Source: an uncultured Klebsiella sp. (GTDB taxonomy: Bacteria > Pseudomonadota > Gammaproteobacteria > Ga0077536). From it: a DNA stretch of 64,000 nt. The stretch covers positions 343,177 to 407,176 of the forward strand of contig CAZKRY010000001.1 in assembly GCA_964555355.1 (NCBI GenBank), written 5' to 3'. A model generated the notes under the pieces. It did no database searches, was not told the DNA's origin, and saw only the letters and a program-made list of their open reading frames with translations. This document shows, piece by piece, positions 2,064 through 56,484 of the stretch. Position numbers and translations under genes: made by a program. Numbering within the stretch: position 1 is the stretch's first letter; the number at the start of each line of letters is the position of its first letter.

Positions 2064-2921
2064 ATGTCCACTGCGCGTTTTACCGGTACCGATACGTACG
2101 TTGCGACCGACGATCTCATGATGGCGGTGAACGCCGCTATTGTGCTGACCCGTCCGCTGCTAGTGAAAGGGGAGCCGGGAACCGGCAAAACGATGCTCGC
2201 GGAAGAAATCGCCCGCTCACTCGACAGGCCGCTGATCCAATGGCATATCAAGTCGACCACCAAAGCGGCCCGTGGACTATACGAATATGACGCCGTTGCC
2301 CGGTTACGCGACTCGCAGTTGGGCGATGACCGCGTCAAAGACATTCGCAACTACATTCAGAAGGGCAAGCTGTGGGAGGCTTTCGAATCCAACGCGCAGC
2401 CGGTCTTGCTAATTGATGAGATAGACAAAGCCGATATCGAGTTTCCGAACGACTTATTGCAAGAACTCGACCGCATGGAGTTCTACGTTTACGAAACCAA
2501 GGAAACGATCAGGGCCACACACCGGCCGATCATCATCATCACCAGTAACAATGAAAAAGAATTGCCGGATGCGTTTCTGCGTCGGTGTTTCTTTCACTAC
2601 ATTCGATTTCCGGACCAGGAAACGATGGAGCACATCGTGCATGTGCATTATCCGGATATCAAAAAGCGCTTGCTCGCCGAAGCTTTGCAATGCTTTTTTG
2701 AGTTGCGCGATCTGCCCGGTCTGAAGAAAAAACCGTCCACGTCTGAATTGCTGGACTGGATCAAACTCTTGGTCGCCGAAGACATTCCGCCGGAAGCCCT
2801 GCGCGAGAAGGATTCACGCAAAGCGATCCCCAAGTTGTACGGCGCGCTACTCAAGAACGAACAAGATATGCATCTCTTCGAGCGGCTGGTGTTCATGTCG
2901 CGAGGTCGCGGTGCTAACTGA
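2064..2921 (+). CDS. MoxR-family AAA+ ATPase (CoxD/NorQ-like)
   Basis: Walker A GEPGTGKT, Walker B LLIDEIDK, sensor arginines; ~285 aa, the size typical of single-domain MoxR ATPases. It overlaps the downstream VWA gene by 11 nt. Confidence 0.85.
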   Translation: MSTARFTGTDTYVATDDLMMAVNAAIVLTRPLLVKGEPGTGKTMLAEEIARSLDRPLIQWHIKSTTKAARGLYEYDAVARLRDSQLGDDRVKDIRNYIQKGKLWEAFESNAQPVLLIDEIDKADIEFPNDLLQELDRMEFYVYETKETIRATHRPIIIITSNNEKELPDAFLRRCFFHYIRFPDQETMEHIVHVHYPDIKKRLLAEALQCFFELRDLPGLKKKPSTSELLDWIKLLVAEDIPPEALREKDSRKAIPKLYGALLKNEQDMHLFERLVFMSRGRGAN

Positions 2922-4095
2922 GTTTTTTTATCGCCTGCGCAAGGTACAAATACCGGTCTCGCTGACCGAGTATTTGACGTTGATGCAGGCGCTGGAAGCG
3001 CGTATCGCGGGTTTCAGCATCGACGATTTTTACTATTTGGCGCGCGCCACGCTGGTGAAAGACGAGCGCTATTTTGATCGCTTCGATCAAGTCTTTGGCG
3101 ATTACATCCGAGGCCAAACCACGGCGTTTGAACAAATTCTGGGCGAGATCCCGCTCGAATGGCTGCGTAAGCAAAAAGAACTGACGCTGACCGACGAAGA
3201 GAAAAAACTGATCGAAAGTTTGGGCGGCTGGGACAAGTTGATGGAGACGCTGAAGCAGCGTCTGGAAGAACAGAAGAAGGCGCATCACGGCGGTAACAAG
3301 TGGATAGGGACCGGCGGGACCTCGCCATTCGGCGCGCATGGCTATAACCCGGAGGGCGTGCGCATCGGGCAGCCCACCGGGCGCCAAGGGAAAGCGGTCA
3401 AGGTGTGGGATAAACGCGAATACCAGAACCTGGATGACCAGGTCGAACTCGGTACACGCAACATCAAAGTGGCGCTGCGTAAATTGCGCCGCTTCGCGCG
3501 CGAAGGGGCGGAAGAAGAACTCGATTTGGACGATACGATCCGCTCAACCGCGCGCCGCGCCGGCCTCTTGGATATCAAGCTCGTGCCCGAGCGGCGCAAC
3601 ACCACCAAGGTTCTGCTGTTCTTGGATGTGGGCGGCTCGATGGACCCGCACGTCAAAGTTTGCGAGGAGTTGTTCTCCGCAACACGCGCCGAGTTCAAGC
3701 ACCTGGAGCATTTCTACTTCCACAATTTTGTCTACGAGACGGTGTGGCGGGACAATCGCATGCGTAACAACCAGCGGTATCCGACGCAATCCGTGCTGAA
3801 TAAATACAGTGCCGATCACAAGGTAGTCTTTGTCGGCGACGCGACGATGAGCCCGTATGAAATCATGGCGGTGGGCGGCAGTATCGAACACTGGAACGAA
3901 GAAGCCGGCGCGACTTGGATGGGGCGCTTGCTCGCGCTTTACCCTTACGCGGTGTGGTTAAACCCGCAGCCGGAAGATTATTGGAGCTACATCCCGTCCA
4001 TTGGTATCGTTAAACAATTATTGGCCGATCGAATGTTTCCGCTGACGATCGATGGGTTGGAACGCGCGATGAAGGCGCTTAAAAAGGCGCACTGA
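2911..4095 (+). CDS. VWA-domain protein (CoxE-like), partner of the MoxR ATPase
   Basis: C-terminal von Willebrand A domain with a MIDAS motif (LLFLDVGGSMD). The N-terminal region resembles the CoxE family. Translationally coupled to the upstream MoxR gene. Confidence 0.75.
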   Translation: MLTEFFYRLRKVQIPVSLTEYLTLMQALEARIAGFSIDDFYYLARATLVKDERYFDRFDQVFGDYIRGQTTAFEQILGEIPLEWLRKQKELTLTDEEKKLIESLGGWDKLMETLKQRLEEQKKAHHGGNKWIGTGGTSPFGAHGYNPEGVRIGQPTGRQGKAVKVWDKREYQNLDDQVELGTRNIKVALRKLRRFAREGAEEELDLDDTIRSTARRAGLLDIKLVPERRNTTKVLLFLDVGGSMDPHVKVCEELFSATRAEFKHLEHFYFHNFVYETVWRDNRMRNNQRYPTQSVLNKYSADHKVVFVGDATMSPYEIMAVGGSIEHWNEEAGATWMGRLLALYPYAVWLNPQPEDYWSYIPSIGIVKQLLADRMFPLTIDGLERAMKALKKAH

Positions 4096-4100
4096 GTGTT

Positions 4101-5147
4101 TTGAACGCCAGCGGCGATCTCCGATTGAACGTTGGGACCGCTTGTTCTTGTTTGAGAGTGTTACTGCTCATTGTTAGCGCCATGACGCTAACGCGCGTTA
4201 CGTTCGCGATAAGCGCCGACGATCTTGCCGTCATTATCAACGATGACGACGCTTACAGTGTCGACATCGGGACGCATTACGCGGCGGCACGGCAGATCCC
4301 TCAAGCGCATGTCGTGCACGTTCATCTCGGCACCCCCCGCGCTGTTCTCGCCCCGGACGACTTCAAGCGCGCATACACAACAGTGACTGAAACGCTGCCC
4401 AAGACGGTGCAAGGATTCGCGCTCGCGTGGACGCGTCCTTATCGCGTTGGGTGCATGTCGATGACCACCGCTTTCGCGATGGGTTACGCACCGCGGCATT
4501 GTGCGGACGGTTGTAAACCCATTGCGCCAAATCCGTTGTATGACAAAGAGACGCGTGCGCCGTACACGGACTTCCGCGTGCGTCCGGCAATGTTGCTTGC
4601 GGCAGAAACCGCCGCGAACGCGCGCCAACTGATCGCCCGCGGCGTGCGCAGCGACGGGATCAAACCCGCCGGCACTGCGTATTTAGTCGAAACCAACGAT
4701 CGTGCGCGCAGCACACGTACGCCTAAGTATCCGGCAATCGTGCAGCGGTTCGGGAGCGCATTAGACGTGCGGATGGTGCGCGGCGAAGGTATTCGCGAGC
4801 GCTTCGATGTCATGTTTTATTTCACCGGTGCGACTCATGTGCCGTACCTTGAAACGCTTGGGTTTTTGCCGGGCGCGATTGCCGATCATTTAACCTCCGC
4901 CGGGGGCCAGCTTGACGGCGAGGGTCAGATGAGCGCGCTGCGATGGCTGGAAGCAGGTGCGACCGGTAGCTACGGTACCGTTGTCGAGCCGTGCAATTTC
5001 CCGCAAAAGTTCCCCGCCCCCATGCAGGTACTAAAGTTTTATCTGGCCGGCGAAACGCTGCTGGAAGCTTACTGGAAGAGTGTGGTGTGGCCTGGCCAAG
5101 GGGTCTTTATTGGCGAGCCGCTCGCGAGCCCCTATCGTGTCCAGTGA
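4101..5147 (+). CDS. Hypothetical secreted protein (signal peptide), possibly the third member of the MoxR/VWA module
   Basis: N-terminal hydrophobic h-region followed by AISADD. No recognisable catalytic motif. Starts 6 nt after the VWA gene. Confidence 0.45.
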   Translation: MNASGDLRLNVGTACSCLRVLLLIVSAMTLTRVTFAISADDLAVIINDDDAYSVDIGTHYAAARQIPQAHVVHVHLGTPRAVLAPDDFKRAYTTVTETLPKTVQGFALAWTRPYRVGCMSMTTAFAMGYAPRHCADGCKPIAPNPLYDKETRAPYTDFRVRPAMLLAAETAANARQLIARGVRSDGIKPAGTAYLVETNDRARSTRTPKYPAIVQRFGSALDVRMVRGEGIRERFDVMFYFTGATHVPYLETLGFLPGAIADHLTSAGGQLDGEGQMSALRWLEAGATGSYGTVVEPCNFPQKFPAPMQVLKFYLAGETLLEAYWKSVVWPGQGVFIGEPLASPYRVQ

Positions 5148-5263
5148 CGCCGCCCGGCGTCAGGTGCCAGAATTTGTCGCTAGGTAGCGTCAGTTCGCGC
5201 GCACGAGTTTCGAATATTTCCTACCCCGGTCAAGATCCACCGCCTCCACGCCGCTAATTTCTC

Positions 5264-5605
5264 GTGAAACGGGTCACGTTTCCTCACTCAAACGACGAAC
5301 CCGGTCGCACTGACAGCACAGTGAACGTCTATGTTTGCGAAGATGGAACGACGATTGCTGTATCTGTCATGAAACGCAATCCACGGAGACCAATAATGAA
5401 GGCCATTTCGACGATAGACCGGCGCATTGCGCGATTCTCCGGCTATCGGGACATGAACGGTGAGTTTGTGCCATTCACGATGTCCGACGAAGTTTTCAGC
5501 CGCGCGCGGAAACTCGGCGCGCGGGTTCTGTTGCGCCTGGAACTGTCCGAGAGTCGCGAGTTACAAGGTTTGTTTTATACCAACGATCGCAGCCTATCGC
5601 GCTAA
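5264..5605 (+). CDS. Small hypothetical protein (113 aa); start uncertain
   Basis: The ORF is present, but a REP-like hairpin lies immediately downstream. No motif recognised. Confidence 0.25.
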   Translation: MKRVTFPHSNDEPGRTDSTVNVYVCEDGTTIAVSVMKRNPRRPIMKAISTIDRRIARFSGYRDMNGEFVPFTMSDEVFSRARKLGARVLLRLELSESRELQGLFYTNDRSLSR

Positions 5606-5610
5606 CGAAC

Positions 5611-5665
5611 GAAACCTCTCCCACCGGGAGAGGTCGGCGCGTCAGCGCCGGGTGCGGGGCAGCCT
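5611..5665. repeat. REP-like palindromic element (single copy of the family seen at 36.2, 49.8, 52.1 and 55.4 kb)
   Basis: The cctctcccaccgggagagg hairpin followed by a ggcgcgtcagcgcc hairpin. The core is shared with the other copies. Confidence 0.6.
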
Positions 5666-5750
5666 TTCTACAGCCACCCGCACGCTCCGCAAAAACACTG
5701 TCTCTACCGCACCTGGTTAGCTACCATGCTCCGAATTTCGGAGGCTCGGT

Positions 5751-6518
5751 GTGGACAAGGGAAAGCTCGAATCGGCGTTTAAGCGTTTTGCGGATAATCC
5801 CGCCGATCTTCTCGAAGGCGCGCTGCTGGTGTCTGCGCTAGTGCAACCGTTGACCGATCCCGCCTGGTGCCGCCGCACCATTCAAGAGTTAACCGACAAA
5901 TTGAGTTTGCCGACGGTAGAGGCTTTGCTTGAGCTGTTTCACCGTGAAGGATTCGCTGGCGCCGACACGTATTACGAAGCGCGCAACAGCGCGGTCGACT
6001 ATGTACTTAAGGAGCGACGCGGCATTCCCATCACCCTTGCGGTTATTTTGATAGAGGTGGCCCGTAGAGCGGGACTCGCCGCTGCGGGAATTAATTTCCC
6101 GGGGCACTTTTTAGTTTCGATAGCCGAACGTGTGGTCGATCCCTTCACGTTGCAGGCGCTGTCCGAACAAGCATGTAAACAACGTCTCGCGGCCTCGGGC
6201 GTGCGTCCAGAAGTCGCGTGGCGGCGCGCGTCCAATACCGCCATCGTATTGAGAATGCTGAATAATCTGCGGGGTATCGCACTGCAATCCGGTGATTCCG
6301 CGCGGGCGCTCGAGTACACCGATTACCAGCTTCAACTAAACGGTGACCGGCTTGAACTTGCGCTCGTCCGGGCGGAATTGTGGGTCGCGATTGGCGCGCC
6401 ACAAATAGCGGTGCATGAACTTGAAACGGCTAAGACCTTGAATCCTGGTGCGGAACTCACTGAACAAATTGACCAGCGGTTATCTCTGCTAGCGAAGGCA
6501 AGGCCCTCTCTGCACTGA
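5751..6518 (+). CDS. SirB1/YchA-family protein (transglutaminase-like N-domain plus TPR-like C-domain)
   Basis: GTG start. The GIPITLAVILIEVARRAGL...GINFPGHFLV segment is characteristic of the UPF0162/SirB1 family; TPR-like C-terminus. Confidence 0.65.
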   Translation: MDKGKLESAFKRFADNPADLLEGALLVSALVQPLTDPAWCRRTIQELTDKLSLPTVEALLELFHREGFAGADTYYEARNSAVDYVLKERRGIPITLAVILIEVARRAGLAAAGINFPGHFLVSIAERVVDPFTLQALSEQACKQRLAASGVRPEVAWRRASNTAIVLRMLNNLRGIALQSGDSARALEYTDYQLQLNGDRLELALVRAELWVAIGAPQIAVHELETAKTLNPGAELTEQIDQRLSLLAKARPSLH

Positions 6519-6582: not shown

Positions 6583-7233
6583 ATGACCCAGCAACGCGAA
6601 GAATCCCTCACTCTGGAATTGCTCTCAGCGATCGAAGCCAAGAGCGACGTCACTCAGCGCCATATCGCGGACCGCATGGGGGTGGCGCTCGGACTCGCGA
6701 ATTCCTACTTAAAACGCTGTGTGCGAAAGGGGTTGGTGAAAATCACCCAAGCACCGGCTAACCGTTATTTGTATTACTTAACGCCAACCGGGTTCGCCGA
6801 GAAAAGCCGCCTGACAGCGCAGTATTTCAGCTATTCGTTTGATTTTTATCGGCGGGCGAGTGCTTCCACGCGCGAAGCGCTCGCGCTCTGCGCTGAACGG
6901 AACTGGCGGCGATTGCTCTTTATCGGCACCTCTGAACTCGCGGAAATCGCGTTTGTGAGCAGTCATGACTTTAAGTTCGAAATTATTGGGACCTACGCCG
7001 CGGGAAGCGGACTTAAAGCTTTTCTGGGTAGACCGGTGTGGGAAGAAATTCCGCCGCTAGACAAGTTTGACGGTGCGATATTTTGCGCGCTGGATGGCCA
7101 CCAAGCGTGGTTTGAACGTGTTACCCAAGAGATTCCCGTTGAACGATTGGTTTTTCCGGAACTCGTTAAACCGCTCATGCCCGTAACCTCCAATTTTCAC
7201 GCGCCAACGCCGACGTCAGGCGCAAGGAGTTAA
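6583..7233 (+). CDS. Winged-helix-turn-helix transcriptional regulator at the head of the glycan locus
   Basis: N-terminal wHTH (SDVTQRHIADRMGVALGLANSYLKRCVRKGLVKI). The C-terminal ~120 aa are of unknown function. First gene of the + strand block. Confidence 0.5.
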   Translation: MTQQREESLTLELLSAIEAKSDVTQRHIADRMGVALGLANSYLKRCVRKGLVKITQAPANRYLYYLTPTGFAEKSRLTAQYFSYSFDFYRRASASTREALALCAERNWRRLLFIGTSELAEIAFVSSHDFKFEIIGTYAAGSGLKAFLGRPVWEEIPPLDKFDGAIFCALDGHQAWFERVTQEIPVERLVFPELVKPLMPVTSNFHAPTPTSGARS

Positions 7234-7237: not shown

Positions 7238-8302
7238 ATGGAATATCGCGTGCCTTATCGGATTGAGGACCGACGCATACGGTTTGCCGTCGTCGGCGCC
7301 GGCCGCATTTCCGACCGGCATTTCGATGCACTGAAGGCGCATGCGGAACGCGCCGAACTGGTCGCCATCGCGGACAGCGATCCCCAAGTACTCAAAAAGA
7401 CTTGCGAAACACACGGGGTGGAGGGTTATGACGGATTAGATGCGTTGCTCACAAAAAGCGACGCCGACTGCGTCGCGCTATGCACGCCCTCGGGTCTTCA
7501 CCCGGCACAAGCGATGCAAGTTGCCCGCGCCGGCCGCCACGTCGTTACGGAAAAGCCAATGGCCACGCGCCTGGTCGATGGCAAACGCATGGTACAAACC
7601 TGCGACGAAAACAATGTTCATCTGTTCGTCGTCAAACAGAATCGCCTGAACCCGACGTTGCAGTTGGTCAAAAATGCGGTGCGCAAACGGCGCTTTGGAC
7701 GCATCTACATGGTCAACGTCAATGTGTTCTGGACGCGACCGCAGTCTTATTACGACTCATCCCGTTGGCGCGGAACCTGGGAATTTGACGGCGGCGCATT
7801 CATGAACCAAGCCAGCCACTACATTGATCTGCTCGACTGGCTAATTGGCCCAATCGAGAGCGTGCATGCCTATACCTCAACACTCGAACGCAATATCGAA
7901 GTCGAAGATAGCGGGGTCGCCAATATCAAATGGCGCTCCGGCGCGCTGGGGTCGCTCAATGTCACGATGTTGACCTACCCGCGTAACCTTGAAGGCTCGA
8001 TCACTATCTTGGGTGAAAAGGGCTCGGTGCAAGTAGGCGGTGTTGCCGTCAACGAAATCAAACACTGGGAGTTTGCCGAGCCTGACGCCGACGATGAGAA
8101 AGTTAAAGACGCAAGTTACGGCACGGCGTCCGTATATGGCGTCGGCCATCCGATGTACTACGACAACGTTATTCGCGTGCTACGGGGCGAAGCGAGAGCG
8201 GAAACCGATGGACGGGAAGGGCTACGTTCGCTCGAAACCTTGATCGCCATGTACATCTCCTCACGCGATGGCCGTCGCGTGTCATTGCCGCTCGAATATT
8301 GA
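7238..8302 (+). CDS. wbpB: Gfo/Idh/MocA-family oxidoreductase, WbpB-like UDP-GlcNAcA 3-dehydrogenase
   Basis: N-terminal Rossmann fold ([14 protein letters not shown]) and EKP motif (VVTEKPMA). Gene order with the WbpD-like and WbpE-like genes downstream. AGGAG ribosome-binding site 8 nt upstream. Confidence 0.75.
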
Positions 8303-8312
8303 GGCTCTGACT

Positions 8313-8888
8313 ATGGCCTATACCGTTCACCCAAGCGCAATCGTCGATGACGGCGCGCAGATCGGCGATGGCACCCGGATCTGGCACTGGGTGCATGTGA
8401 GCGCGGGCGCGCGGATCGGCCAAGGTTGCTCGCTTGGCCAGAATGTCTATGTGGGCAATCGCGTCGTCATCGGCAATAACGTCAAGATTCAAAATAACGT
8501 TTCGGTATATGACAACGTAACACTAGAAGACGGCGTCTTTTGCGGTCCGAGCATGGTGTTCACGAATGTTTATAACCCACGCTCGGAAGTCTCACGCAAA
8601 GACGAGTACCGCGATACGTTGGTGAAGCGCGGCGCGACCTTAGGTGCTAATTGCACCATCGTGTGCGGGGCGACAATCGGCGAGTACGCATTTATTGGCG
8701 CGGGCGCGGTTGTCAATCGCGATGTGCCGGCGTTTGCGCTAATCGTCGGCGTCCCAGGCAAACAGATGGGATGGATGAGTAAGTTTGGCGAGCGATTGAA
8801 TTTACCGCTCAGCGGAGACGCTGAGTGTATTTGTCCGCATACGAACGAACGTTATGTACTACGAGCCGGCGTGTGTACCACCGTTTGA
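8313..8888 (+). CDS. wbpD: Left-handed beta-helix (hexapeptide) N-acetyltransferase, WbpD-like
   Basis: Hexapeptide repeats ([27 protein letters not shown]...). The start is taken at the internal ATG 8313 (MAYTVHPS) rather than the ORF-track start 8268, to avoid overlapping wbpB. Confidence 0.75.
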
Positions 8889-8916
8889 AGCGAATAAACG
8901 CGACACCTAGGACACC

Positions 8917-10023
8917 ATGATGGAATTCATTGATCTCAAAACGCAGTACCAACGGCTTAAACCGGAAATCGACCGACATATCCAACAAGTGCTCGACCAC
9001 GGCGCCTACATCATGGGGCCCGAAGTCGCGGCGATAGAAGCCAAACTCGCGGAGTATGTCGGCACCAAACACTGCATTACCGTCGCCAGTGGTACCGATG
9101 CACTGCTAATCGCGATGATGGCGCTGGGGATCAAGGCCGGCGATGAAATCATCACGACCCCATTCACGTTTATCGCAACTGGCGAAATGATTGCGCTACT
9201 CGGCGCCAAACCCGTGTTTGTCGATATCGATCGTGAGACCTATAACCTCGATCCCACGCTCACTGAAGCCGCCATCACCTCGCGCACTCGCGCGATCATG
9301 CCGGTGAGTTTGTATGGCCAGTGCGCCGAATTGGACGAGATTAATGCGATCGGCGCCAAACACGGCATTCCGGTGATTGAAGATGCGGCGCAGAGTTTCG
9401 GCGCCACTTACAAAGGCCGAAAATCATGTGCACTTTCCACCATTGGATGCACGAGCTTTTTCCCGTCCAAGCCGCTGGGTTGCTATGGCGATGGCGGCGC
9501 CTGTTTTACGGACGACGATGCGCTCGCCAAAGCAATGCGCGAGATCCGCGTACACGGCCAGGACCGCCGTTATCATCATCCAATCATCGGTGTGAATGGC
9601 CGGATGGATACGTTGCAGTGCGCGATTCTGCTCGCCAAGTTCCCGACGTTTGCGGAAGAAGTACGGCTGCGTGAAGAAATCGGCGCGCGCTACACAGCGC
9701 TAATCAAGAATGCCGCAAGCGGCGCGCAACCGCCGACACTAAGGTCCTACAACACCTCGGTCTATGCGCAGTACACGGTGGAAGTGGACGCGCGAGACGT
9801 GGTCCAAGAAAAATTGAAAGCGGCCGGGATCCCAACCGCCGTGCATTATCCGGTACCGCTACATTTGCAGCCGGCGTTTGCGTCGCTTGGACTGAAAGAA
9901 GGAGCCTTCCCCAAGAGCGAAGCGGCGGCGAAACGGGTGATGAGTTTGCCGATGCATCCGTTTCTAAATGAATCAACTCAACAACAGGTTATTCAAGCGC
10001 TGATGTCGGCGACTTCACGCTAA
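8917..10023 (+). CDS. wbpE: DegT/DnrJ/EryC1/StrS-family PLP aminotransferase, WbpE-like
   Basis: DegT-family fold with the PLP-lysine region (SFFPSKPLGCYGDGGA). Position after the WbpB/WbpD-like genes. Confidence 0.8.
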   Translation: MMEFIDLKTQYQRLKPEIDRHIQQVLDHGAYIMGPEVAAIEAKLAEYVGTKHCITVASGTDALLIAMMALGIKAGDEIITTPFTFIATGEMIALLGAKPVFVDIDRETYNLDPTLTEAAITSRTRAIMPVSLYGQCAELDEINAIGAKHGIPVIEDAAQSFGATYKGRKSCALSTIGCTSFFPSKPLGCYGDGGACFTDDDALAKAMREIRVHGQDRRYHHPIIGVNGRMDTLQCAILLAKFPTFAEEVRLREEIGARYTALIKNAASGAQPPTLRSYNTSVYAQYTVEVDARDVVQEKLKAAGIPTAVHYPVPLHLQPAFASLGLKEGAFPKSEAAAKRVMSLPMHPFLNESTQQQVIQALMSATSR

Positions 10024-10043: not shown

Positions 10044-11039
10044 ATGGATATTCGCGGTAAGAAACTCGTGGTCATTGGTGGAGCCGGTTTAATCGGCTCA
10101 CACGCCGTTGATTTATTAACTAAGGAAGATGTCGGCGAAATCGTTATCTACGATAACTTCGTCCGCGGCACGACCGAAAATTTAGCGGGCGCGTTACGCG
10201 ATCCGCGGGTCAAGGTGTATGAAGCCGGTGGCGACGTTTGTCAGGCGGATATTCTCGATGCGGCGCTCAAAGGCGCGGATGGCGTATTTCATTTCGCCGC
10301 GTTGTGGCTCCTGCAGTGCCATGAGTTCCCGCGCGCGGCGTTTGACGTCAATGTGCGCGGCACTTTCAACGTGCTTGAGGCATGCGTCGCGAACAAAGTT
10401 CAACGCCTCGTCTACTCGTCATCCGCATCAGTCTACGGCGACGCGGTGGAAGAACCGATGACCGAAGACCACCCGTTTCTAAATAAGAATTTTTACGGCG
10501 CGACGAAAATTTGCGGCGAATCGATGGCGCGCGCCTATCACCATCGCTATGGACTGAACTTTGTCGGCTTACGCTACATGAACGTCTATGGCCCTCGCCA
10601 GGATTATCGGGGCGCGTATATCGCGGTGATCATGAAGATGTTGGACGCAATCGACAAAGGTGAGGGCCCAACGATCTTCGGAGACGGCTCCGAAGCTTTT
10701 GACTTTGTGGCCGTTGAAGACTGCGGCGCGGCGAATGTCTGCGCCATGAAGGCCGAGACGGTCGATCGCTTTTACAATGTCGGCACCGGCCATCGGACCT
10801 CTTTAAAAGAAATTGCCGAGCTACTGCTACGTCTATCTGGCTCGAAAGCTACCATCAATTACGCGCCCCGCAGTCAAGCGACGTTCGTTCGCAACCGGAT
10901 CGGCTGCCCGAAACGGGCAACGGCCGAAATCGGTTTTACCGCGAAAATCGCACTCGAAGAAGGCATGCGTCGAGTCATCGATTGGCGCAAGTCGCACATT
11001 GAGGAAGTGAACTCGCGTCGCGCGAAGGCTGCGAAGTAG
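10044..11039 (+). CDS. NAD-dependent epimerase/dehydratase (extended SDR; UDP-sugar 4-epimerase/decarboxylase-like)
   Basis: GGAGLIGSH glycine-rich NAD motif and catalytic YxxxK (YGATKICGE); ~330 aa. Confidence 0.8.
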   Translation: MDIRGKKLVVIGGAGLIGSHAVDLLTKEDVGEIVIYDNFVRGTTENLAGALRDPRVKVYEAGGDVCQADILDAALKGADGVFHFAALWLLQCHEFPRAAFDVNVRGTFNVLEACVANKVQRLVYSSSASVYGDAVEEPMTEDHPFLNKNFYGATKICGESMARAYHHRYGLNFVGLRYMNVYGPRQDYRGAYIAVIMKMLDAIDKGEGPTIFGDGSEAFDFVAVEDCGAANVCAMKAETVDRFYNVGTGHRTSLKEIAELLLRLSGSKATINYAPRSQATFVRNRIGCPKRATAEIGFTAKIALEEGMRRVIDWRKSHIEEVNSRRAKAAK

Positions 11040-11059: not shown

Positions 11060-12934
11060 ATGTGCGGAATTGCTGGGATTCTACACCTGGACGGCGCGCC
11101 CGCTTCGGTGACGTTGCTGCGCAGGATGACGGATTCAATCTCGCATCGTGGACCCGATGGCGAAGGTCATCACGTGGATGGGTCGCTCGCGCTAGGACAT
11201 CGACGCCTGTCAATCATCGACTTATCCGCTGCCGGCCATCAACCGATGGCGACACCCGATGGCCGCTACCTGCTTACCTACAACGGGGAGATCTACAACT
11301 TCCAGGAACTACGCACAGCGCTTGAAGCGCTGGGTCGCCAGTTCCGTTCGCGCACGGATTCCGAGGTGTTGCTAATGGGCTTCGCGGAGTGGGGGCTGCG
11401 CGTCCTGGACCGCCTGAACGGCATGTTTGCCTTTGCGATCTGGGACAAAGAAACCCGCACACTGACGCTTGCTCGTGACCGTTACGGTATCAAGCCGCTG
11501 TATTGGGCAAAGGTTGGCGCAACGGTTCTGTTCGGCTCCGAGATAAAGGCGATCCTTGCCCACGGTGCTATCAGGGCAAAACTCGATGGACCGGGTCTCC
11601 TCGAATACTTCACTTTTCAGAACTTTTTCACCGACCATACGCTATTCGACGGAGTGCGATTGTTGCCAGCCGGCACCTATTTGCAAGTCCGCGCCGACGT
11701 GCGCTGGACGCCATCGCCGGTGCGTTATTGGGACTATGATTTCAATGAACCCCTCGAGCGCATATCCGACGCGGAATACCTCGAAGAACTCGACCGGCTC
11801 TTCAAGCAGGCAGTGAACAGGCAACTAGTCAGTGACGTTGAACTCGGCAGTTACCTGTCCGGCGGTATGGATTCGGGTTCCATCACGGCGATCGCGGCGA
11901 GACAGATCCCTGATCTCAAGTCCTTCACGTGCGGTTTCGACCTACGCTCCGCGTCCGGCCTCGAACTGAACTTCGATGAGCGCCAAGCCGCCGAAGCGAT
12001 GTCCTATGAATTTAAGACCGAACATTATGAGATGGTGCTCAAAGCCGGGGACATGGAGCGTGTAATCCCGCGGCTGGCTTGGCACTTGGAGGAACCGCGC
12101 GTTGGCCAGTGCTACCCAAACTTCTATGCCGCGCAACTGGCAAGCAAGTTCGTCAAGGTAGTGCTATCCGGCGCGGGCGGTGACGAGTTGTTCGGTGGTT
12201 ATCCATGGCGCTACTACCGCGCCGTCGTCAACGACGATTTCGAACATTATATCGACAAGTATTATTCGTACTGGCAGCGCTTAGTCCCGAACAAGACCAT
12301 AAAGCAGCTGTTCGCGCCAATCTGGAGCGACGTCAAGGACGTTTGGACACGTGATATTTTTCGCGATGTCTTCGGTCATCACGCCGCTTCGCTCACGCGG
12401 CCGGAAGATTACGTCAACCACTCGTTGTACTTCGAGGCGAAAACTTTCCTGCACGGATTATTGGTGGTGGAAGACAAGATGAGTATGGCGCATTCGCTCG
12501 AAACGCGCGTGCCTTTCCTCGACAACGACCTCGTGGACTTCGCGACGCGCGTGCCGGTATCGCTGAAACTTGGCAACCTAGGCGAAGTGGTGAGACTCAA
12601 CGAGAACGAGCCTTCGCACAAGACGACCAAGTACTATCAGAAAACCAATGATGGAAAACTTTTATTGCGAAAGATGATGTCGCGGCATATCCCGGCGGAG
12701 ATCGCGGATCGTGAAAAGCAGGGGTTTTCCGCGCCCGATGCGAGTTGGTTCAAGGGAGAAAGCATCGACTACGTGAAACGCATGCTCTACCAGGGGCCGA
12801 CAAGCCTCTACAAATTCCTCGATCGCGGTACCGTTCATGGCTTAGTCGATGAGCACCTCGAAGGTCACGAGAATCGGCGGCTGTTGATCTGGTCGTTGCT
12901 GAATGTCGAGCAGTGGTGCAGGCATTACCTGTGA
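11060..12934 (+). CDS. Asparagine synthase (glutamine-hydrolysing)-family amidotransferase, WbpS/AsnB-like
   Basis: N-terminal MCGIAG (Ntn Cys2), GATase-2 domain, PP-loop SGGMDSGS. Confidence 0.85.
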   Translation: MCGIAGILHLDGAPASVTLLRRMTDSISHRGPDGEGHHVDGSLALGHRRLSIIDLSAAGHQPMATPDGRYLLTYNGEIYNFQELRTALEALGRQFRSRTDSEVLLMGFAEWGLRVLDRLNGMFAFAIWDKETRTLTLARDRYGIKPLYWAKVGATVLFGSEIKAILAHGAIRAKLDGPGLLEYFTFQNFFTDHTLFDGVRLLPAGTYLQVRADVRWTPSPVRYWDYDFNEPLERISDAEYLEELDRLFKQAVNRQLVSDVELGSYLSGGMDSGSITAIAARQIPDLKSFTCGFDLRSASGLELNFDERQAAEAMSYEFKTEHYEMVLKAGDMERVIPRLAWHLEEPRVGQCYPNFYAAQLASKFVKVVLSGAGGDELFGGYPWRYYRAVVNDDFEHYIDKYYSYWQRLVPNKTIKQLFAPIWSDVKDVWTRDIFRDVFGHHAASLTRPEDYVNHSLYFEAKTFLHGLLVVEDKMSMAHSLETRVPFLDNDLVDFATRVPVSLKLGNLGEVVRLNENEPSHKTTKYYQKTNDGKLLLRKMMSRHIPAEIADREKQGFSAPDASWFKGESIDYVKRMLYQGPTSLYKFLDRGTVHGLVDEHLEGHENRRLLIWSLLNVEQWCRHYL

Positions 12935-12958
12935 CCATGCGAAAGAACGGAATTCGAT

Positions 12959-13807
12959 ATGGAGTTTAGCCTCATAAACACACTGGCTCCGTCCTCAATC
13001 GCGCGCGCGTGCCGCGCAGCGTATATGACTTTAAGCGCAAATAGAGGCCTGGTTTTCGAGATGACTCGGCGAGACCTGAAGTCCCAATACGCCGGCCAAA
13101 TTATCGGGAATTGGTGGGTTGTGGCTCACCCTTTGTTTATGATGTCGCTCTACGTATTCGTGTTTGCGTACGTATTCAAAGTTAAACTGGGCGGGACTGT
13201 TGATATGCCGCTCAGTTACACGGCATATATACTCAGCGGTCTAGTTCCATGGTTGAGTTTCAACCAATGCATGGCGCGGGCACCGGTTGTTTTGCCGGGC
13301 CACGCCAATCTCGTTAAGCAGGTCGTGTTTCCTCTTGAAGTGCTACCCGCCACCGCAGTTCTACTCAATCTAATACCACTAGCAGTCGGTTTGGTCGTCC
13401 TTTTGGTACACGTGATATGGACGAACGGCCTCCCTCCAGCAACTTATTTGTTGCTGCCGTTGCTTGTTACGCTACAGATGATCGCAATGCTAGGTGTTTC
13501 ATTTGCGCTTGCGGCACTTGGTCCATTTGCCCGAGATACGAAAGATATTGTTCAGATCTTCGCGTTAGCCGGCAATTACCTGATGCCGATTTTTTACCTT
13601 CCCGAATGGGTACCGAACGCCCTGCGGCCTCTGCTTTACCTGAATCCGTTTAGTTATCTCACCTGGTGTTATCAGGACGCGCTTTATTTTGGCCGTTTCG
13701 AACATCCGATTGCGTGGGTGGCGAACACCGTGGGCAGTTTTCTCGTTCTGGCATGGGGATACTCTATTTTCCGTAGACTTCGACCGTTCTTTGGAAGCGC
13801 ATTATGA
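12959..13807 (+). CDS. wzm: ABC-2-type polysaccharide exporter permease (Wzm-like)
   Basis: Six predicted transmembrane segments. The RRDLKSQYAGQIIGNWWVVAHPLFMMSLYVFVF motif is typical of Wzm/KpsM permeases. The start could instead be the internal ATG about 66 nt downstream. Confidence 0.75.
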   Translation: MEFSLINTLAPSSIARACRAAYMTLSANRGLVFEMTRRDLKSQYAGQIIGNWWVVAHPLFMMSLYVFVFAYVFKVKLGGTVDMPLSYTAYILSGLVPWLSFNQCMARAPVVLPGHANLVKQVVFPLEVLPATAVLLNLIPLAVGLVVLLVHVIWTNGLPPATYLLLPLLVTLQMIAMLGVSFALAALGPFARDTKDIVQIFALAGNYLMPIFYLPEWVPNALRPLLYLNPFSYLTWCYQDALYFGRFEHPIAWVANTVGSFLVLAWGYSIFRRLRPFFGSAL

Positions 13808-15081
13808 GTTCCAACGAACTTGCAATTTCAGTTTCGAATTTGTGTAAGGCATATAACGTCTATAATTCTCCGCGCGATTTTATTGTCGAGACGATTACAT
13901 CAAAACCGCGCCACATTAAGCAGCTTGCACTTCGAGACGTATCTTTTGAGATCCGACGCGGAGAAATTGTAGGGATAATCGGATCGAACGGTGCCGGTAA
14001 GAGTACGCTGCTCAAAATCCTCGCGGGCACGTTAGACCGCACGAGCGGACAAGTCGCCGTTTACGGCAAGATTTCCGCAATTCTTGAGCTGGGCACTGGA
14101 TTTCATCCTGATTTCACCGGGCGCGAGAACATCATTATCGGCGGAATGTGTTTGGGCATGACCCGAGAGGAAGCTATTCGAAAAGCGCCTTCGATCATTG
14201 AATTCAGTGAGCTAGAGTCGGTAATCGATCAACCGTTTAAAACTTACTCTAGCGGTATGCAGGCGAGGCTGACATTTTCTACGGCGATCAGCATCGACCC
14301 AGACATTCTGATAATCGATGAAGCCCTCGCAGCAGGTGACGCATATTTCGTTAGAAAATCTTTGGCGCGACTACGAGAGATATGCCGCTCGGGCGTGACC
14401 GTGTTGTTGGTGACACATTCAACCGACATAATCGCGACGTTGTGTCAACGCGCTATCTGGCTCGGAGATGGCACGATTCGCATGGAGGGCCCCGCAAAAT
14501 CCGTTGCCAATGCTTATGAGTTAGATGTGGAACGACGAATTACTGCGGGATACAAAGACGCACAAGCAAGAACCTTCGCAAGTAAGGTAAGCGCTGACGG
14601 CGAAGCTTATAGCTTTCTACGCGCTGGGATCGATATCGTCCAATGCCGGGTAGAAGATTCAAATGGCCAGGAGCGAGAGTCATTCGCGCAAGGGGAGCCT
14701 CTACGCATAGTCATTCGGTGGCGCGGACAATTTGACGGAACGTTACATCCAGTTATCGGTATACGATCAACTAGTGGAGTTGTAAGTGGTTTCGTTGGCT
14801 GCGAGCATGGTGTCTATCTGCGGACGCCCAGCGGAGAGGGTCTTATTGCACTGGATATAATCGATCCACTTTATGGTCTCGGCGAGTACTCGATCTCGCT
14901 TTCACTAGTCCGCTCGGACCCCGTTCAAGCCTTAGAAGAGGAAGTGTGTTTCATTCGGAATGCAGCCAAATTCTACGTAAGGCGGCGATTTCCCCGAAGC
15001 TATTGCTATGCGTACGAACCCCGTGTTCGCTGGCGAGATAGCGACGGATGCGAAATCTCTTCACTCGAAATTGAGGCATGA
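13804..15081 (+). CDS. wzt: ABC transporter ATP-binding protein (Wzt-like) with a C-terminal glycan-binding extension
   Basis: Walker [13 protein letters not shown] signature YSSGMQARL, Walker B ILIIDEA. An additional ~170-aa C-terminal domain, as in O-antigen Wzt. ATGA overlap with wzm. Confidence 0.85.
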
Positions 15082-15084
15082 CTC

Positions 15085-16707
15085 ATGAATAAATTTCCCG
15101 AAAATATCCATCTGCGCGCGAGGTCAAACGAGTCGAGCTTAGCGTCAGGATTTTTGCGTGGCATGAGATGGTTTTCGAGCGCGTTCGCGAAAAAACCGAG
15201 AGCCGCGCGACTAATCGGATATCTTGTGGTCAGTAAACAGATTGATCAGTCGTACGAAGAGAAGCGGATCAAAAGAATTATTCACGAGTTACGCGCCAGT
15301 GGAACTACTCAATTTGCGGCGAGTGAACTTACTGGAAATGCGCAAATAGATTCACTGTTCAATGAAGTAATCCCGCTGCAGAAACTACCGACCGAATACG
15401 CAAATGATTTTGTCGTAATGTGTCCTACGAGTCAGTACCACGTCACGAACCTACATCTCAAAACAATGATTAGTGCTGCGCGCCTTAGCGGTAAAACATC
15501 TTGCTACCAGATCGTCGGCAGTGAATTTATAGGAAATATGGGATTGCACTTCTGCATAGCCGTTTTGGCGCCGCAATCCGCTAGCATTAATCCCGCCCGC
15601 TTGGGATATCTAAATTTTTGGAACGAGCAGACGCCATTCGACGATGAAACAACTGTAAATTGGCTGGAGATTTCCGACGCTGAGCTACGCGAAGCCTATC
15701 GAAGCTATGCAGAAATTGGTCGCCCTAAGACGGTTACCGTCGAACTCAATAGCACTTGTAACTTCAAATGCAGTTACTGCCCTTTCCACGGCGACGACAC
15801 AGAGAATCCCCTCTATGTCGGCCCGAAGTTAGGACGCGAAATGTGCCTTGAAGACTTCGCCAAACAGGTTCGGTCTGTCGCTGAATGGAAAGATGAATTC
15901 GATCCGCAGGTCGCAACTATTGCCCCGTTCTGGCGTGGCGAGTTTTTTATGGCGGGAAAATGGCAGGAAGCCCTCGCGGTGATAAAAGAGAACGGCCTAC
16001 GCTCATATGTATGCACAAATGGCTCGGTGCTGCGAAGGGATATCGTCGACACATTAATGAAGACTGGCCTGCTAGATCATTTAACCATTAGCCTTGACGC
16101 GACAGATGATGAACAGAACTGGGCTACACGTCGGAACGCAAAATTTGATCGTATTCAATCCATTATTGAATATGCGTTAAGTGAACGGGCTCGCTTGGCA
16201 CGGCCGATGACGATCGCGCTTAACTTCACGATCGTCACCGAAAACAAGGAAGCTATCGAAGCCTACGTGGAGCAGTGGGGATCAAAAGTAGATTACATTT
16301 TGATGGGACCGCGCCACAAAATGAATCCACAATCACTACATGGTGAATATGAGCAGGACTTGGTTCCATGGGAACAAGCGCCGATACCGATGCGGCGAGT
16401 TCCATGCGTTTATCTGGTTAATACCATATCTGTGAATTGTGACCAGGAGATGCATCTGTGCGCCCCGTGCGGTTCGCAACGAATCGAAGTTGCTAACGTC
16501 TCAAAGCGTGGGATAGCCGTTGAACGAAGTGAGTCGGTAAAAGTGAAAGAAACCATTAAATCCTTTGAAGATGGGTCTTTCGAAAATAATGATTACTGTC
16601 GGAATTGCAGCATGTGGCGATTCCACTTCCAGAGTAGAGAAGAGCGCATGGGCTACGCCTTTACGATGAACCCGCAGGCATGGACTATCACTCGTAAGCA
16701 GCTGTGA
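15085..16707 (+). CDS. Radical SAM protein with a ~220-aa N-terminal domain of unknown function and a Cys-rich (SPASM-like) C-terminus
   Basis: CNFKCSYC matches the CxxxCxxC radical-SAM cluster motif. The C-terminal cysteines (CVYL..C..C..CG; CRNC) suggest auxiliary clusters. Local GC is lower than in the flanks. Confidence 0.7.
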   Translation: MNKFPENIHLRARSNESSLASGFLRGMRWFSSAFAKKPRAARLIGYLVVSKQIDQSYEEKRIKRIIHELRASGTTQFAASELTGNAQIDSLFNEVIPLQKLPTEYANDFVVMCPTSQYHVTNLHLKTMISAARLSGKTSCYQIVGSEFIGNMGLHFCIAVLAPQSASINPARLGYLNFWNEQTPFDDETTVNWLEISDAELREAYRSYAEIGRPKTVTVELNSTCNFKCSYCPFHGDDTENPLYVGPKLGREMCLEDFAKQVRSVAEWKDEFDPQVATIAPFWRGEFFMAGKWQEALAVIKENGLRSYVCTNGSVLRRDIVDTLMKTGLLDHLTISLDATDDEQNWATRRNAKFDRIQSIIEYALSERARLARPMTIALNFTIVTENKEAIEAYVEQWGSKVDYILMGPRHKMNPQSLHGEYEQDLVPWEQAPIPMRRVPCVYLVNTISVNCDQEMHLCAPCGSQRIEVANVSKRGIAVERSESVKVKETIKSFEDGSFENNDYCRNCSMWRFHFQSREERMGYAFTMNPQAWTITRKQL

Positions 16708-28433: not shown

Positions 28434-28440
28434 TCCGCGC

Positions 28441-34238: not shown

Positions 34239-36194
34239 ATGTGTGGAATTGTCGGCGCGCTTATCGGTAACGCGTTCGATCGATCGAACTTACGTTCGGC
34301 GGTGGACGCAATGAACACGCGTCTCCATCACCGCGGCCCCGACGCCGGCGACGTGTGGGTTGACGCCTCCGCTGGCCTTGCGCTCGGCCACCGACGCTTG
34401 TCGATTCTCGATCTCTCGCCCGCAGGCGCGCAGCCGATGCACTCCAAGTGTGGTCGCTATGTCATCGTCTTTAACGGCGAGATCTATAACTTCGCGTCTT
34501 TGCGCGACGAGCTTGCCGCGCGCGGAGAAATCTTTGTCGGGCATTCGGATACGGAAGTCTTGCTCGCGGGTTTTGTCGCTTGGGGTATCGAACAGACACT
34601 AAAACGCGCCAACGGCATGTTTGCGATTGCACTCTGGGACAAACGCGAACGTGAATTAACGCTGGCGCGCGACAGATTAGGCGAAAAGCCGCTGTATTAC
34701 GGAATGCATCAGGGATCGTTGTTGTTCGCCTCGGAACTCAAAGCACTGCATGCCTGGCCGGATTTCAGACCAGAGATCGATCGCGATGCGCTTACGCTCT
34801 TTCTCCGACATAACTACATTCCAGAGCCGTTTTGTGTTTATCGGGGCTTACGCAAACTGCCGCCTGCGCATTTCTTGACCGTTGGTGTCGATTCGCTCCG
34901 AGAGTTACCCGCGCCCCGACCGTATTGGTCGTTGCAAGATGCGATCACGCGTGGGCGGCAAACACCCTTCTCCGGCACACGCGAAGAAGGCGTGGAGTTA
35001 TTGGATACAACACTGCGCGAATCGGTGCGGCTGCGCATGGTGGCCGATGTCCCGCTCGGCGCGTTTCTCTCGGGCGGGATCGATTCCTCCACCGTGGTCG
35101 CCCTGATGCAGGCACAGAGCACACGCCCAATCCGCACGTTTTCGATTGGCTTTACCGTGCCTGAGTATGACGAAGCGCCCTATGCGCGCGCGGTCGCCAA
35201 ACACTTGGGCACGGACCACACGGAGCTTTACGTCAATCCGGATGAGACGCGCGCCGTCATCCCGCGCCTCCCGGCGATGTATGACGAACCCTTTGCGGAC
35301 TCATCGCAAATTCCAACCTTCTTGGTGTCCTCGCTCGCCCGCCAACACGTCACGGTCGCAATGTCAGGTGACGCCGGAGACGAACTTTTTGCTGGCTACA
35401 CACGTTATTCCGTGGCACTCGACCTTTGGCGCCGGCAACAACGTTTGCCATTGGTTGCCCGGCGTGCGCTGGCGCGCGTGTTGACCGGCATCGCTCCGCG
35501 GCAGTGGGATAGTTTGTTCAAGGTACTTGGCCCAGTACTGCCGGCGCGTCTACGTCAACCGATGCCCGGTGACAAATTGCATAAGCTCGCAGGCTTGCTC
35601 GCAATCAATGAATCGCTCGCGATGTATCGCGATTTGATTTCCCTATGGAAAGAGCCGGAGCGAGTGGTACTCGGAGGCCGCGAACCACCGAGTGTCATGT
35701 CGATTGCAGCTAACTTGCCTAACGAACTCGAGTTTGTCGAACGCATGATGGCGCTGGATACCTTGCACTATCTGCCGGGCGACATTTTGACCAAAGTCGA
35801 TCGCGCGAGCATGGCAGTAAGTCTGGAAGCGCGCGTGCCGTTACTCGATACGGAAGTCGTCGAACTCGCTTGGCGCTTACCGCAGTCATTTAAGGTGCAT
35901 CAAGGCGTGGGCAAATGGGTGCTGCGCGAGGTGCTCGCGCGCTACGTGCCGCGTAAGCTTTTTGAACGGCCCAAAATGGGTTTCGGGATCCCGATTGACG
36001 CCTGGCTGCGCGGCCCTTTACGCGAATGGGCGGAAGATCTGTTGAACGAATCGCGCTTAGCGCAAGCCGGTTTTTTCGACGCTAAGGCAGTACGGCAGGT
36101 ATGGCAGGCTCATCTATCCGGCGGCCAGAATCTGCAATATTTGTTGTGGACGATTTTGACTTTCGAGGCGTGGCGGGCCGCTTATCGGAGCTAA
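34239..36194 (+). CDS. Asparagine synthase (glutamine-hydrolysing)-family amidotransferase, second paralog
   Basis: MCGIVG N-terminus and PP-loop SGGIDSST. Paralogous to 11060..12934. Confidence 0.85.
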   Translation: MCGIVGALIGNAFDRSNLRSAVDAMNTRLHHRGPDAGDVWVDASAGLALGHRRLSILDLSPAGAQPMHSKCGRYVIVFNGEIYNFASLRDELAARGEIFVGHSDTEVLLAGFVAWGIEQTLKRANGMFAIALWDKRERELTLARDRLGEKPLYYGMHQGSLLFASELKALHAWPDFRPEIDRDALTLFLRHNYIPEPFCVYRGLRKLPPAHFLTVGVDSLRELPAPRPYWSLQDAITRGRQTPFSGTREEGVELLDTTLRESVRLRMVADVPLGAFLSGGIDSSTVVALMQAQSTRPIRTFSIGFTVPEYDEAPYARAVAKHLGTDHTELYVNPDETRAVIPRLPAMYDEPFADSSQIPTFLVSSLARQHVTVAMSGDAGDELFAGYTRYSVALDLWRRQQRLPLVARRALARVLTGIAPRQWDSLFKVLGPVLPARLRQPMPGDKLHKLAGLLAINESLAMYRDLISLWKEPERVVLGGREPPSVMSIAANLPNELEFVERMMALDTLHYLPGDILTKVDRASMAVSLEARVPLLDTEVVELAWRLPQSFKVHQGVGKWVLREVLARYVPRKLFERPKMGFGIPIDAWLRGPLREWAEDLLNESRLAQAGFFDAKAVRQVWQAHLSGGQNLQYLLWTILTFEAWRAAYRS

Positions 36195-36204
36195 GCAAGT
36201 AAAC

Positions 36205-36681
36205 CCTTCCGCGTGCGGGAGAGGGTAGGGTGAGGGTCTTCATACAACGCCACTCGACACGCTGCCCCTCACCCGGCGCTACGCGCCGGCCTCTCCCGGT
36301 GGGGAGAGGCGATTGGAATGACGCTCCTGCTGCGCGTGAGTAGCAAAAACCCTCTCCCGCATGCGGGAGGGCAGGGTGAGGGTCTTCATACAACGCCACT
36401 CGACACGCTGCCCCTCACCCGGCGCTACGCGCCGGCCTCTCCCGGTGGGGAGAGGCGATTGGAATGACGCTCCTGCTGCGCGTGAGTAGCAAAAACCCTC
36501 TCCCGCATGCGGGAGGGCAGGGTGAGGGTCTTCATACAACGCCACTCGACACGCTGCCCCTCACCCGGCGCTATGCGCCGGCCTCTCCCGGAGGGAGAGG
36601 CGATTCGATGACACTCCTGCTGCGCGGAAGTGGCAAAATAAAACCCTCTCCCGCATGCGGGAGAGGGCAGGGTGAGGGTCT
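36205..36681. repeat. Tandem array (about 3.3 copies) of a 146-bp composite REP/BIME-like palindromic element
   Basis: The catacaacgc landmark recurs at 36241, 36387 and 36533, a period of 146 bp. Each unit contains the hairpins ccctctcccgc..gcgggaggg, ccctcaccc..gggtgaggg and cctctcccggtggggagagg. The array fills the gap between two convergent genes. Confidence 0.85.
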
Positions 36682-36690
36682 TAAGGCCAC

Positions 36691-40622: not shown

Positions 40623-40624
40623 AC

Positions 40625-42889: not shown

Positions 42890-42902
42890 TCGCTCAGCCA
42901 GG

Positions 42903-45722: not shown

Positions 45723-45734
45723 GCGCGAATTGTG

Positions 45735-45762: not shown

Positions 45763-45770
45763 AGAGCTCG

Positions 45771-56482: not shown

Positions 56483-56484
56483 CA

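Follow-up and report, generated by a model that had tools for sequence, protein, structure and literature searches.

A wlbA-wlbB-wlbC gene trio with companion SDR and AsnB-like genes, predicted to serve 2,3-diacetamido-uronic acid formation in an uncultured gammaproteobacterium

A 64-kb stretch of DNA from an uncultured gammaproteobacterium (contig CAZKRY010000001.1; the whole stretch is called the window here, and positions are counted from its first letter) carries at 7238-10023 three adjoining genes that are, with high probability, wlbA, wlbB and wlbC for the synthesis of UDP-2,3-diacetamido-2,3-dideoxyglucuronic acid (UDP-GlcNAc3NAcA), a sugar nucleotide that a short-chain dehydrogenase/reductase (SDR) and an AsnB-like amidotransferase, AsnB1, encoded behind the trio would then most likely process further. 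The steps of WlbA, WlbC and WlbB are assigned by close orthology; the sugar substrate and the final configuration are inferred, and the chemistry and the order proposed for the SDR and AsnB1 are drawn from co-occurrence, domain chemistry and precedent. The three genes, with their Pfam matches, are the following.

7238..8302, + strand: wlbA, 354 aa; GFO_IDH_MocA (PF01408) 103.8 bits and GFO_IDH_MocA_C (PF02894) 136.5 bits
8313..8888, + strand: wlbB, 191 aa with the revised start; Hexapep 79.4 bits
8917..10023, + strand: wlbC, 368 aa; DegT_DnrJ_EryC1 408.2 bits

The wlbA-wlbB-wlbC genes and their products

The original prediction had placed three co-directional sugar genes in this interval, and both the open reading frames (ORFs) and the Pfam domains agree with it. 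The genes are intact and share one direction in the operon order wlbA-wlbB-wlbC, within a tightly packed run of + strand genes that extends from 6583 to 36194, and their Pfam scores exceed the curated cut-offs so far that the matches are not due to chance. The acetyltransferase ORF as listed runs from 8268 to 8888 (206 aa) and overlaps the end of wlbA by 35 nt. Its residue 19 is the first one aligned to WlbB, opposite WlbB residue 5, and an ATG at 8313 (MAYTVHP...) is preceded by GAGG at 8301-8304 as ribosome-binding site. Because of this alignment and this site the start was moved, and the true start of wlbB is most likely 8313 and not 8268, giving a predicted protein of 191 aa versus 192 aa for WlbB. 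With the revised start the intergenic gaps are 10 nt between wlbA and wlbB and 28 nt between wlbB and wlbC.

The product of 7238-8302 aligns without gaps to WlbA of Chromobacterium violaceum (PDB 3q2i; 570 bits, 70.5% identity over 346 aa) and to that of Bordetella pertussis (PDB 3q2k; 526 bits, 65.5% identity), with the Rossmann motif GAGRI at residue 20 and EKP at residue 105. The next-best family in the PDB is glucose-fructose oxidoreductase (GFOR), at 78 bits, and the inositol dehydrogenases reach at most 64 bits; the grouping with inositol or glucose-fructose oxidoreductases by which the original prediction would have been refuted was thus not seen. Among the NCBIfam models the best was iolG (inositol 2-dehydrogenase) with 112.8 bits, far under its cut-off, and the archaeal UDP-GlcNAc 3-dehydrogenase model NF040723 gave 91.8 bits (cut-off 450). 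NCBIfam cannot discriminate this oxidoreductase, and therefore the PDB comparison was taken as decisive. The gene is accordingly named as a predicted UDP-N-acetylglucosaminuronic acid (UDP-GlcNAcA) 3-dehydrogenase (EC 1.1.1.335) of the Bordetella/Chromobacterium WlbA class, and orthologues with 72-85% identity carry the JGI label 'UDP-N-acetyl-2-amino-2-deoxyglucuronate dehydrogenase'. The enzyme falls outside the Pseudomonas aeruginosa/Thermus WbpB class, since Thermus WbpB (PDB 3o9z) scores only 40.5 bits. Hence, the likeness to WbpB and WlbA that had been proposed jointly holds for the WlbA half and fails for the WbpB half.

The two remaining products are equally close to WlbB and WbpE, and again the gap to the next family is large. 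That of wlbB matches Bordetella petrii WlbB (PDB 3mqg/3mqh) with 335 bits and 74.7% identity over 186 aa, the next-best PDB match being 4mzu with 131 bits, and 8313-8888 is on this evidence a putative UDP-GlcNAc3NA 3-N-acetyltransferase with a left-handed beta-helix. The product of wlbC matches P. aeruginosa WbpE (PDB 3nyu/3nu7) with 488 bits and 61.3% identity over 362 columns; next come 8e75, an unnamed DegT entry (454 bits), and other named sugar aminotransferases (QdtB, 2oga and 7b0d) at 254-323 bits. Its SFFPSK motif is identical in the aligned WbpE, and we take the lysine of this motif to be the one that binds pyridoxal phosphate (PLP). The gene at 8917-10023 is a predicted WbpE orthologue, that is, a PLP-dependent UDP-3-keto-GlcNAcA 3-aminotransferase. 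The proposed trio for 3-oxidation, 3-transamination and 3-N-acetylation is therefore borne out, at 570, 335 and 488 bits to WlbA, WlbB and WbpE. It is a known sugar-nucleotide module, whose relatives are already annotated as such by public pipelines, and its genes can be named precisely as those of a UDP-GlcNAcA 3-dehydrogenase, a UDP-GlcNAc3NA N-acetyltransferase and a UDP-3-keto-GlcNAcA aminotransferase.

The neighbours of the trio in other genomes were mapped by tblastn in 80 loci with a WlbA orthologue (66-80% identity, representative genomes), to which four closer loci (80-86%) were added; the sources comprise Gammaproteobacteria, Betaproteobacteria (Chromobacterium, Massilia and others), Gemmatimonadales and other groups. 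Among the GTDB representative genomes scanned, no WlbA relative exceeded 80% identity. Of 82 loci with a WlbA orthologue, 67 had enough downstream sequence, and in 42 of these WlbB and WlbC are encoded directly 3' of wlbA. Where the complete trio was present with 9 kb on either side (n = 34), a WbpA-like 6-dehydrogenase was found in 23 loci, its gene usually starting about 1.3 kb 5' of wlbA, a WecB-like 2-epimerase within 9 kb in seven, and neither of the two in ten. The relative L008, 78% identical, encodes a TviB-like UDP-GlcNAc 6-dehydrogenase (506 bits) and has a Ugd-like gene, both just upstream. A 6-dehydrogenase unlinked to the trio, as assumed for the window, is a common minority arrangement.

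Companion enzymes, substrate and predicted sugar

Behind wlbC, and further along the same run of genes, the window encodes the enzymes and the exporter that would act on the product of the trio.

10044..11039, + strand: extended SDR with GxxGxxG and YGATK (YxxxK) motifs and PDB matches
11060..12934, + strand: AsnB1; Asn_synthase 315.6 bits and GATase_7 158.4 bits; MCGI N-terminus and SGGMDS PP-loop
12959..15081, + strand: Wzm/Wzt ABC exporter; ABC2_membrane 57.4 bits, ABC_tran 79.3 bits, weak Wzt_C 21.2 bits; NCBIfam galactan Wzt 197.9 bits
24804..25955, + strand: second DegT aminotransferase, C4-aminotransferase-like; closest in the PDB are perosamine synthetase (262 bits) and ArnB (223 bits)
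34239..36194, + strand: AsnB2; TIGR03108 592.4 bits, TIGR01536 495.7 bits; MCGI N-terminus and SGGIDS PP-loop

In the proposed pathway a 6-dehydrogenase encoded outside the window is assumed to make UDP-GlcNAcA. WlbA would oxidise its C3 with NAD+ by a sequential mechanism, WlbC would transaminate the 3-keto group with PLP, presumably with L-glutamate as amino donor, as in WbpE, and WlbB would acetylate the new 3-amine from acetyl-CoA to give UDP-GlcNAc3NAcA. The SDR would then epimerise or oxidise C4, AsnB1 would adenylate the C6 carboxylate and add ammonia derived from glutamine, giving a 2,3-diacetamido-hexuronamide, and glycosyltransferases together with Wzm/Wzt would assemble and export the polymer. 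The Wzm/Wzt genes mark the predicted glycan as an ABC-transporter-dependent one.

The best PDB matches of the SDR are mostly UDP-sugar epimerases (6dnt with 152 bits, the UDP-glucose 4-epimerase 4zrm, WbgU and WbpP), and we take 6wjb, 6zl6 and MoeE5, also among its matches, to be C4-epimerases. The SDR is a likely 4-epimerase or 4-oxidase of the UDP-diacetamido-uronic acid. Action of SDRs on UDP-diacetamido-uronic acids through 4-keto intermediates has been proposed in Bordetella (PMC2279256). Orthologues of the SDR and of AsnB1 follow the trio in Polaromonas, Comamonadaceae, Accumulibacter, Legionella and a gammaproteobacterial metagenome-assembled genome, and SDR orthologues stand after wlbC in L012, L013, L024, L033, L054 and L062. 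The linkage was tested by a metagenome scan with AsnB1, which provided 80 loci, 40 with orthologues (51-71% identity) and 40 with paralogues (33-38%). An SDR orthologue (52-79% identity) lay no more than 3.5 kb 5' of the AsnB gene in 21 of 23 orthologue loci and in 0 of 24 paralogue loci; for a WlbB orthologue at up to 10 kb 5' the counts were 14 of 15 and 0 of 14. A C4-type DegT gene up to 3 kb 5' of the AsnB gene, between it and the SDR gene, was present in 14 of 23 orthologue loci (paralogues, 0 of 24), the DegT proteins of the AsnB1 loci being 40-50% identical to the one at 24804-25955. On the evidence of gene linkage, the SDR and AsnB1 are companions dedicated to diacetamido-uronic acid synthesis.

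One metagenome contig, L086, carries at 890-9956 genes for WbpA, WbpB, WbpD, WbpE, an SDR, a DegT protein, AsnB1 and a methyltransferase, and its WbpB is of the P. aeruginosa class (600 bits to 3oa2). From this gene set it follows that either class of 3-dehydrogenase can feed the same WbpD-WbpE-SDR-DegT-AsnB1 module, and the two non-orthologous classes are predicted to be interchangeable in front of the shared downstream module.

AsnB1 is proposed to be an amidotransferase dependent on glutamine and ATP that would amidate the C6 carboxylate to a uronamide. AsnB2, whose gene closes the cluster, shares 32.6% identity with AsnB1 and is nearer to the WbpS/eps_aminotran_1 family. In Porphyromonas gingivalis the AsnB-like PGN_1234 (WbpS), encoded beside wbpE, is needed for the uronamide form of the Wbp-derived sugar, and formation of N-acetylgalactosaminuronamide (GalNAcAN) requires WbpS and WbqG (PMC7468200). 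The original prediction had pointed to two AsnB-like enzymes making either uronamides or acetamidino groups. Both ORFs proved real by GATase_7 and Asn_synthase domains or matches to TIGR01536 and TIGR03108, and by their motifs, and the uronamide suggestion is well founded because of the co-occurrence of the SDR and AsnB1 with the pathway genes and of the genetics of WbpS, WbqG and PGN_1234; the acetamidino suggestion is not.

For the first and last steps of the pathway, six-frame tblastn was run on the whole window (E <= 1e-5), with the WbpA-like protein of Chromobacterium vaccinii, encoded directly 5' of wlbA in that species, and with WecC and WecB of Escherichia coli as queries, and the family scans took in every window ORF of at least 180 aa. 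WecB gave no match to a non-hydrolysing 2-epimerase of the WbpI/WlbD type anywhere in the window, and therefore a manno product is not predicted. The complete five-enzyme set for UDP-2,3-diacetamido-2,3-dideoxymannuronic acid (UDP-ManNAc3NAcA; WbpA, B, E, D and I) is not found within the window, WbpA and WbpI being absent.

Some results weigh against the pathway as drawn. The WbpA-like and WecC queries gave no match to a UDP-GlcNAc 6-dehydrogenase in any frame of the window, and the scanned ORFs contained no UDPG_MGDP_dh match, so that the first step, from UDP-GlcNAc to UDP-GlcNAcA, has to be placed outside the window; L001 and L003, the closest relatives, likewise have no such gene within 10 kb. 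For these reasons the uronic acid substrate of the trio counts as an assumption. The SDR, with its 152 bits, is distant from the characterised epimerases and its reaction is uncertain. AsnB1 (437 bits) and AsnB2 (592.4 bits) both stay under the TIGR03108 cut-off of 816.9, a shortfall that lowers the claim of family membership and not that of a similar reaction. UDP-GlcNAcA is favoured as the probable substrate of WlbA because a 6-dehydrogenase is often linked to the trio in other loci, and this frequent linkage of the orthologues supports it.

Two other products of the trio have to be considered. Should it act on a sugar that is no uronic acid, it would make UDP-2,3-diacetamido-2,3-dideoxyglucose, as in the archaeal UDP-GlcNAc 3-dehydrogenase route, for which we take the GnnA/GnnB route of lipid A to be a further parallel. 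Such a product would agree with the missing 6-dehydrogenase of the window and of its closest relatives and with the weak NF040723 match (91.8 bits, cut-off 450). However, this match is far under its cut-off and no better than that of iolG, the window enzyme shares 65-70% identity with WlbA enzymes of uronic acid pathways, most loci have a WbpA-like or TviB-like 6-dehydrogenase directly 5' of the orthologue, and the conserved companion AsnB1 requires a carboxylate for amidation; a non-uronic product is hence quite improbable. The classical UDP-ManNAc3NAcA pathway, with WbpA and WbpI/WlbD encoded elsewhere and the SDR and AsnB1 serving another sugar such as GalNAcAN, is a stronger candidate, though still an unlikely one. 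The characterised homologues all come from ManNAc3NAcA pathways (PMC10622841), the SDR with AsnB resembles the WbpP/WbpS pair for GalNAcAN (PMC7468200), and the Legionella locus L054 has a WecB-like 2-epimerase in addition to the SDR and AsnB1. Set against this, the window has no WecB-like gene, only the seven complete-trio loci counted above have one within 9 kb, and orthologues of the SDR and AsnB1 rarely occur apart from WlbB/WlbC genes, a linkage that points to a shared substrate line and not to an independent sugar.

The remaining alternative concerns the AsnB-like enzymes, which could make acetamidino (N-acetimidoyl) groups in the way of WbpG instead of uronamides. The idea was raised by the original prediction, and ManNAc3NAmA occurs in P. 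aeruginosa O5 (PMC10607449); WbpG, however, belongs to the NASAT family and has a PP-loop and a tetracysteine zinc site, with no Ntn glutaminase domain (PMC10607449). Both window proteins are canonical AsnB-type enzymes with MCGI, GATase_7 and Asn_synthase, and NASAT/WbuX models had no match among the window ORFs of at least 180 aa. As the WbpG family differs from the AsnB-like proteins, the acetamidino idea is left with no homology behind it and is extremely improbable.

UDP-GlcNAc3NAcA followed by amidation is thus the reading we prefer, and it may be extended. The SDR, the DegT aminotransferase at 24804-25955 and AsnB1 might form a conserved three-enzyme extension of the Wbp/Wlb pathway that converts UDP-GlcNAc3NAcA into a 2,3-diacetamido-4-amino-2,3,4-trideoxy-hexuronamide, a proposal that is speculative and that we regard as possible but doubtful. 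The O-chain of Bordetella bronchiseptica is a poly-L-GalNAc3NAcA, dependent on an ABC transporter and partly in the uronamide form, with a cap that is a derivative of 2,3,4-triamino-2,3,4-trideoxy-galacturonamide and with three glutamine amidotransferase genes, wbmC/I/Z, as candidates for the amide (PMC2615507). If the proposal were true, the SDR, DegT and AsnB1 would be the missing route to a sugar of the type found in this cap (PMC2615507), and the two FemAB-like acyl/aminoacyl transferases, the methyltransferases and the radical SAM protein of the cluster could decorate a chain-terminating cap for Wzm/Wzt.

The uncultured gammaproteobacterium is accordingly predicted to display a polysaccharide with a 2,3-diacetamido-uronic acid, probably in amidated form. 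The wider value of the locus lies only in the SDR/(C4-type DegT)/AsnB orthogroup that travels with the pathway across several phyla, which offers candidate genes for the formation of uronamides, and possibly of 4-amino-uronamides, steps so far implicated by genetics.

Genomic setting of the trio

The trio is preceded by a regulator gene, whose end lies 4 nt 5' of wlbA.

6583..7233, + strand: winged-helix regulator (MarR_EPS-like); HTH_24 33.4 bits and MarR_2 28.1 bits (Pfam)

The protein scores 62.4 bits with NCBIfam TIGR04176 (MarR_EPS), under the cut-off of 88. Homologues with 51-56% identity are encoded directly 5' of wlbA in L001-L004 and L084; the regulator has 204-216 aa in the window and its relatives, and in the closest of these it always adjoins wlbA (9331-9975 in L001, 9264-9878 in L003). 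The loci L001/L002 (86%) and L003/L004 (80%) keep the regulator and wlbA-wlbB-wlbC, and the polysaccharide genes behind them differ. By these likenesses the window comes from a relative of the metagenome-assembled genome GCA_050247235.1. The regulator and the trio are a conserved four-gene head module of differing glycan loci.

Further features of the glycan cluster are these.

15085-16707: radical SAM protein, 540 aa, directly after Wzt; domain from residue ~205-220
Among 17543-18667, 21497-22744 and 23809-24807: two FemAB/Acetyltransf_6 proteins, with weak TIGR03019 matches for the FemAB pair, and a sulfotransferase
28294-29151: WbmS-like protein, weak (PF22537 61.8 bits, PDB 3hft 24 bits)

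The N-terminal ~200 residues of the radical SAM protein have no family match in Pfam or NCBIfam, and the same two collections gave no match for the proteins at 18697-20094 (465 aa) and 29176-30978 (600 aa), both inside the cluster. The FemAB pair, the WbmS-like protein and the sulfotransferase recall the aminoacyl-sugar pathway of Wbp/Vim in P. gingivalis (PMC7468200) and the chemistry of Bordetella wbm. In the test for WbmF/G/H, no Wbm entry was among the PDB matches listed for two SDRs (E <= 1e-25 for the first, <= 1e-8 for the second). The ORFs 21497-22744, 28294-29151 and 32892-34199 overlap the preceding genes by ~140-190 nt when read from the first possible start codon, so that they probably begin at a later codon.

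The G+C content is 50-51% at 12000-18000, a stretch that covers the Wzm, Wzt, radical SAM and methyltransferase genes, and 55-61% elsewhere; the low value possibly points to a core of the locus that is serotype-specific and was gained by lateral transfer. The gap between AsnB2 and a convergent MscS gene, at 36201-36682, is filled by a tandem repeat with a 146-bp unit (3.3 copies, 93% matches), each unit of which contains the palindrome CTCCCGCATGCGGGAG followed by a T-run, and a related palindrome is found at 49833-49856. The search for an RfaH ops element upstream gave no + strand match and a count not above chance, Rfam gave no RNA leader at 5-13 kb in the window, and promoter and terminator scans were not above the shuffled expectation.

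On the 5' side of the glycan locus, 2064-6518 encodes an AAA ATPase (MadB-like, below cut-off), a VWA protein, a TIGR03790-family protein and a transglutaminase-like/TPR protein, a gene set that is syntenic in L001 with 50-93% identity. The region 39286-58146 holds genes of anaerobic/aromatic-type metabolism unrelated to the trio, including xanthine dehydrogenase/4-hydroxybenzoyl-CoA reductase-like subunits, a cytochrome P450, a CoA-transferase, F420-type luciferase-like oxidoreductases and a cyclohexanecarboxylate-CoA ligase-like protein (679 bits, under the cut-off of 792).

Comparison with characterised Wlb, Wbp and Wbm systems

The window gene shares with WlbA of C. violaceum and B. pertussis the length of 354 aa and the EKP and Rossmann motifs, and the arrangement of wlbA followed by wlbB and wlbC is common to the window and the WlbA systems. 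The flanks of the trio differ. Directly 5' of wlbA, C. vaccinii has its WbpA-like 6-dehydrogenase and the window its winged-helix regulator; 3' of wlbC, where we take Bordetella to have wlbD for the 2-epimerase, the window has the SDR and AsnB genes. WbpB of P. aeruginosa (3oa2) and Thermus thermophilus (3o9z) serves the same reaction and pathway as the window WlbA, although it is a protein of ~316 aa with a distant family kinship to it (the 40.5 bits to 3o9z). Both classes of dehydrogenase catalyse the C3 oxidation of UDP-GlcNAcA, the step that follows WbpA in the five-step pathway of WbpA, WbpB, WbpE, WbpD and WbpI; WbpB works by a ping-pong mechanism with 2-oxoglutarate as the oxidant of NADH, whereas the enzymes of B. 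pertussis and C. violaceum are sequential (PMC10622841, 2023).

B. petrii WlbB and WbpD have, like the window WlbB, a left-handed beta-helix and the same operon position, with no notable difference between them, and WlbC departs from WbpE in two small indels close to the C-terminus. The gene order of the window is dehydrogenase, acetyltransferase, aminotransferase; in the pathway the last two exchange places, the aminotransferase acting before the acetyltransferase. WbpS, WbqG and PGN_1234, as well as wbmC/I/Z of Bordetella, resemble the AsnB proteins of the window in the glutaminase Cys2, the PP-loop and the location beside Wbp-type glycan genes. Unlike the WbpS group, with which its likeness was judged through the TIGR03108 score, AsnB1 forms an orthogroup of its own that is tied to the SDR and often to a C4-type DegT aminotransferase.

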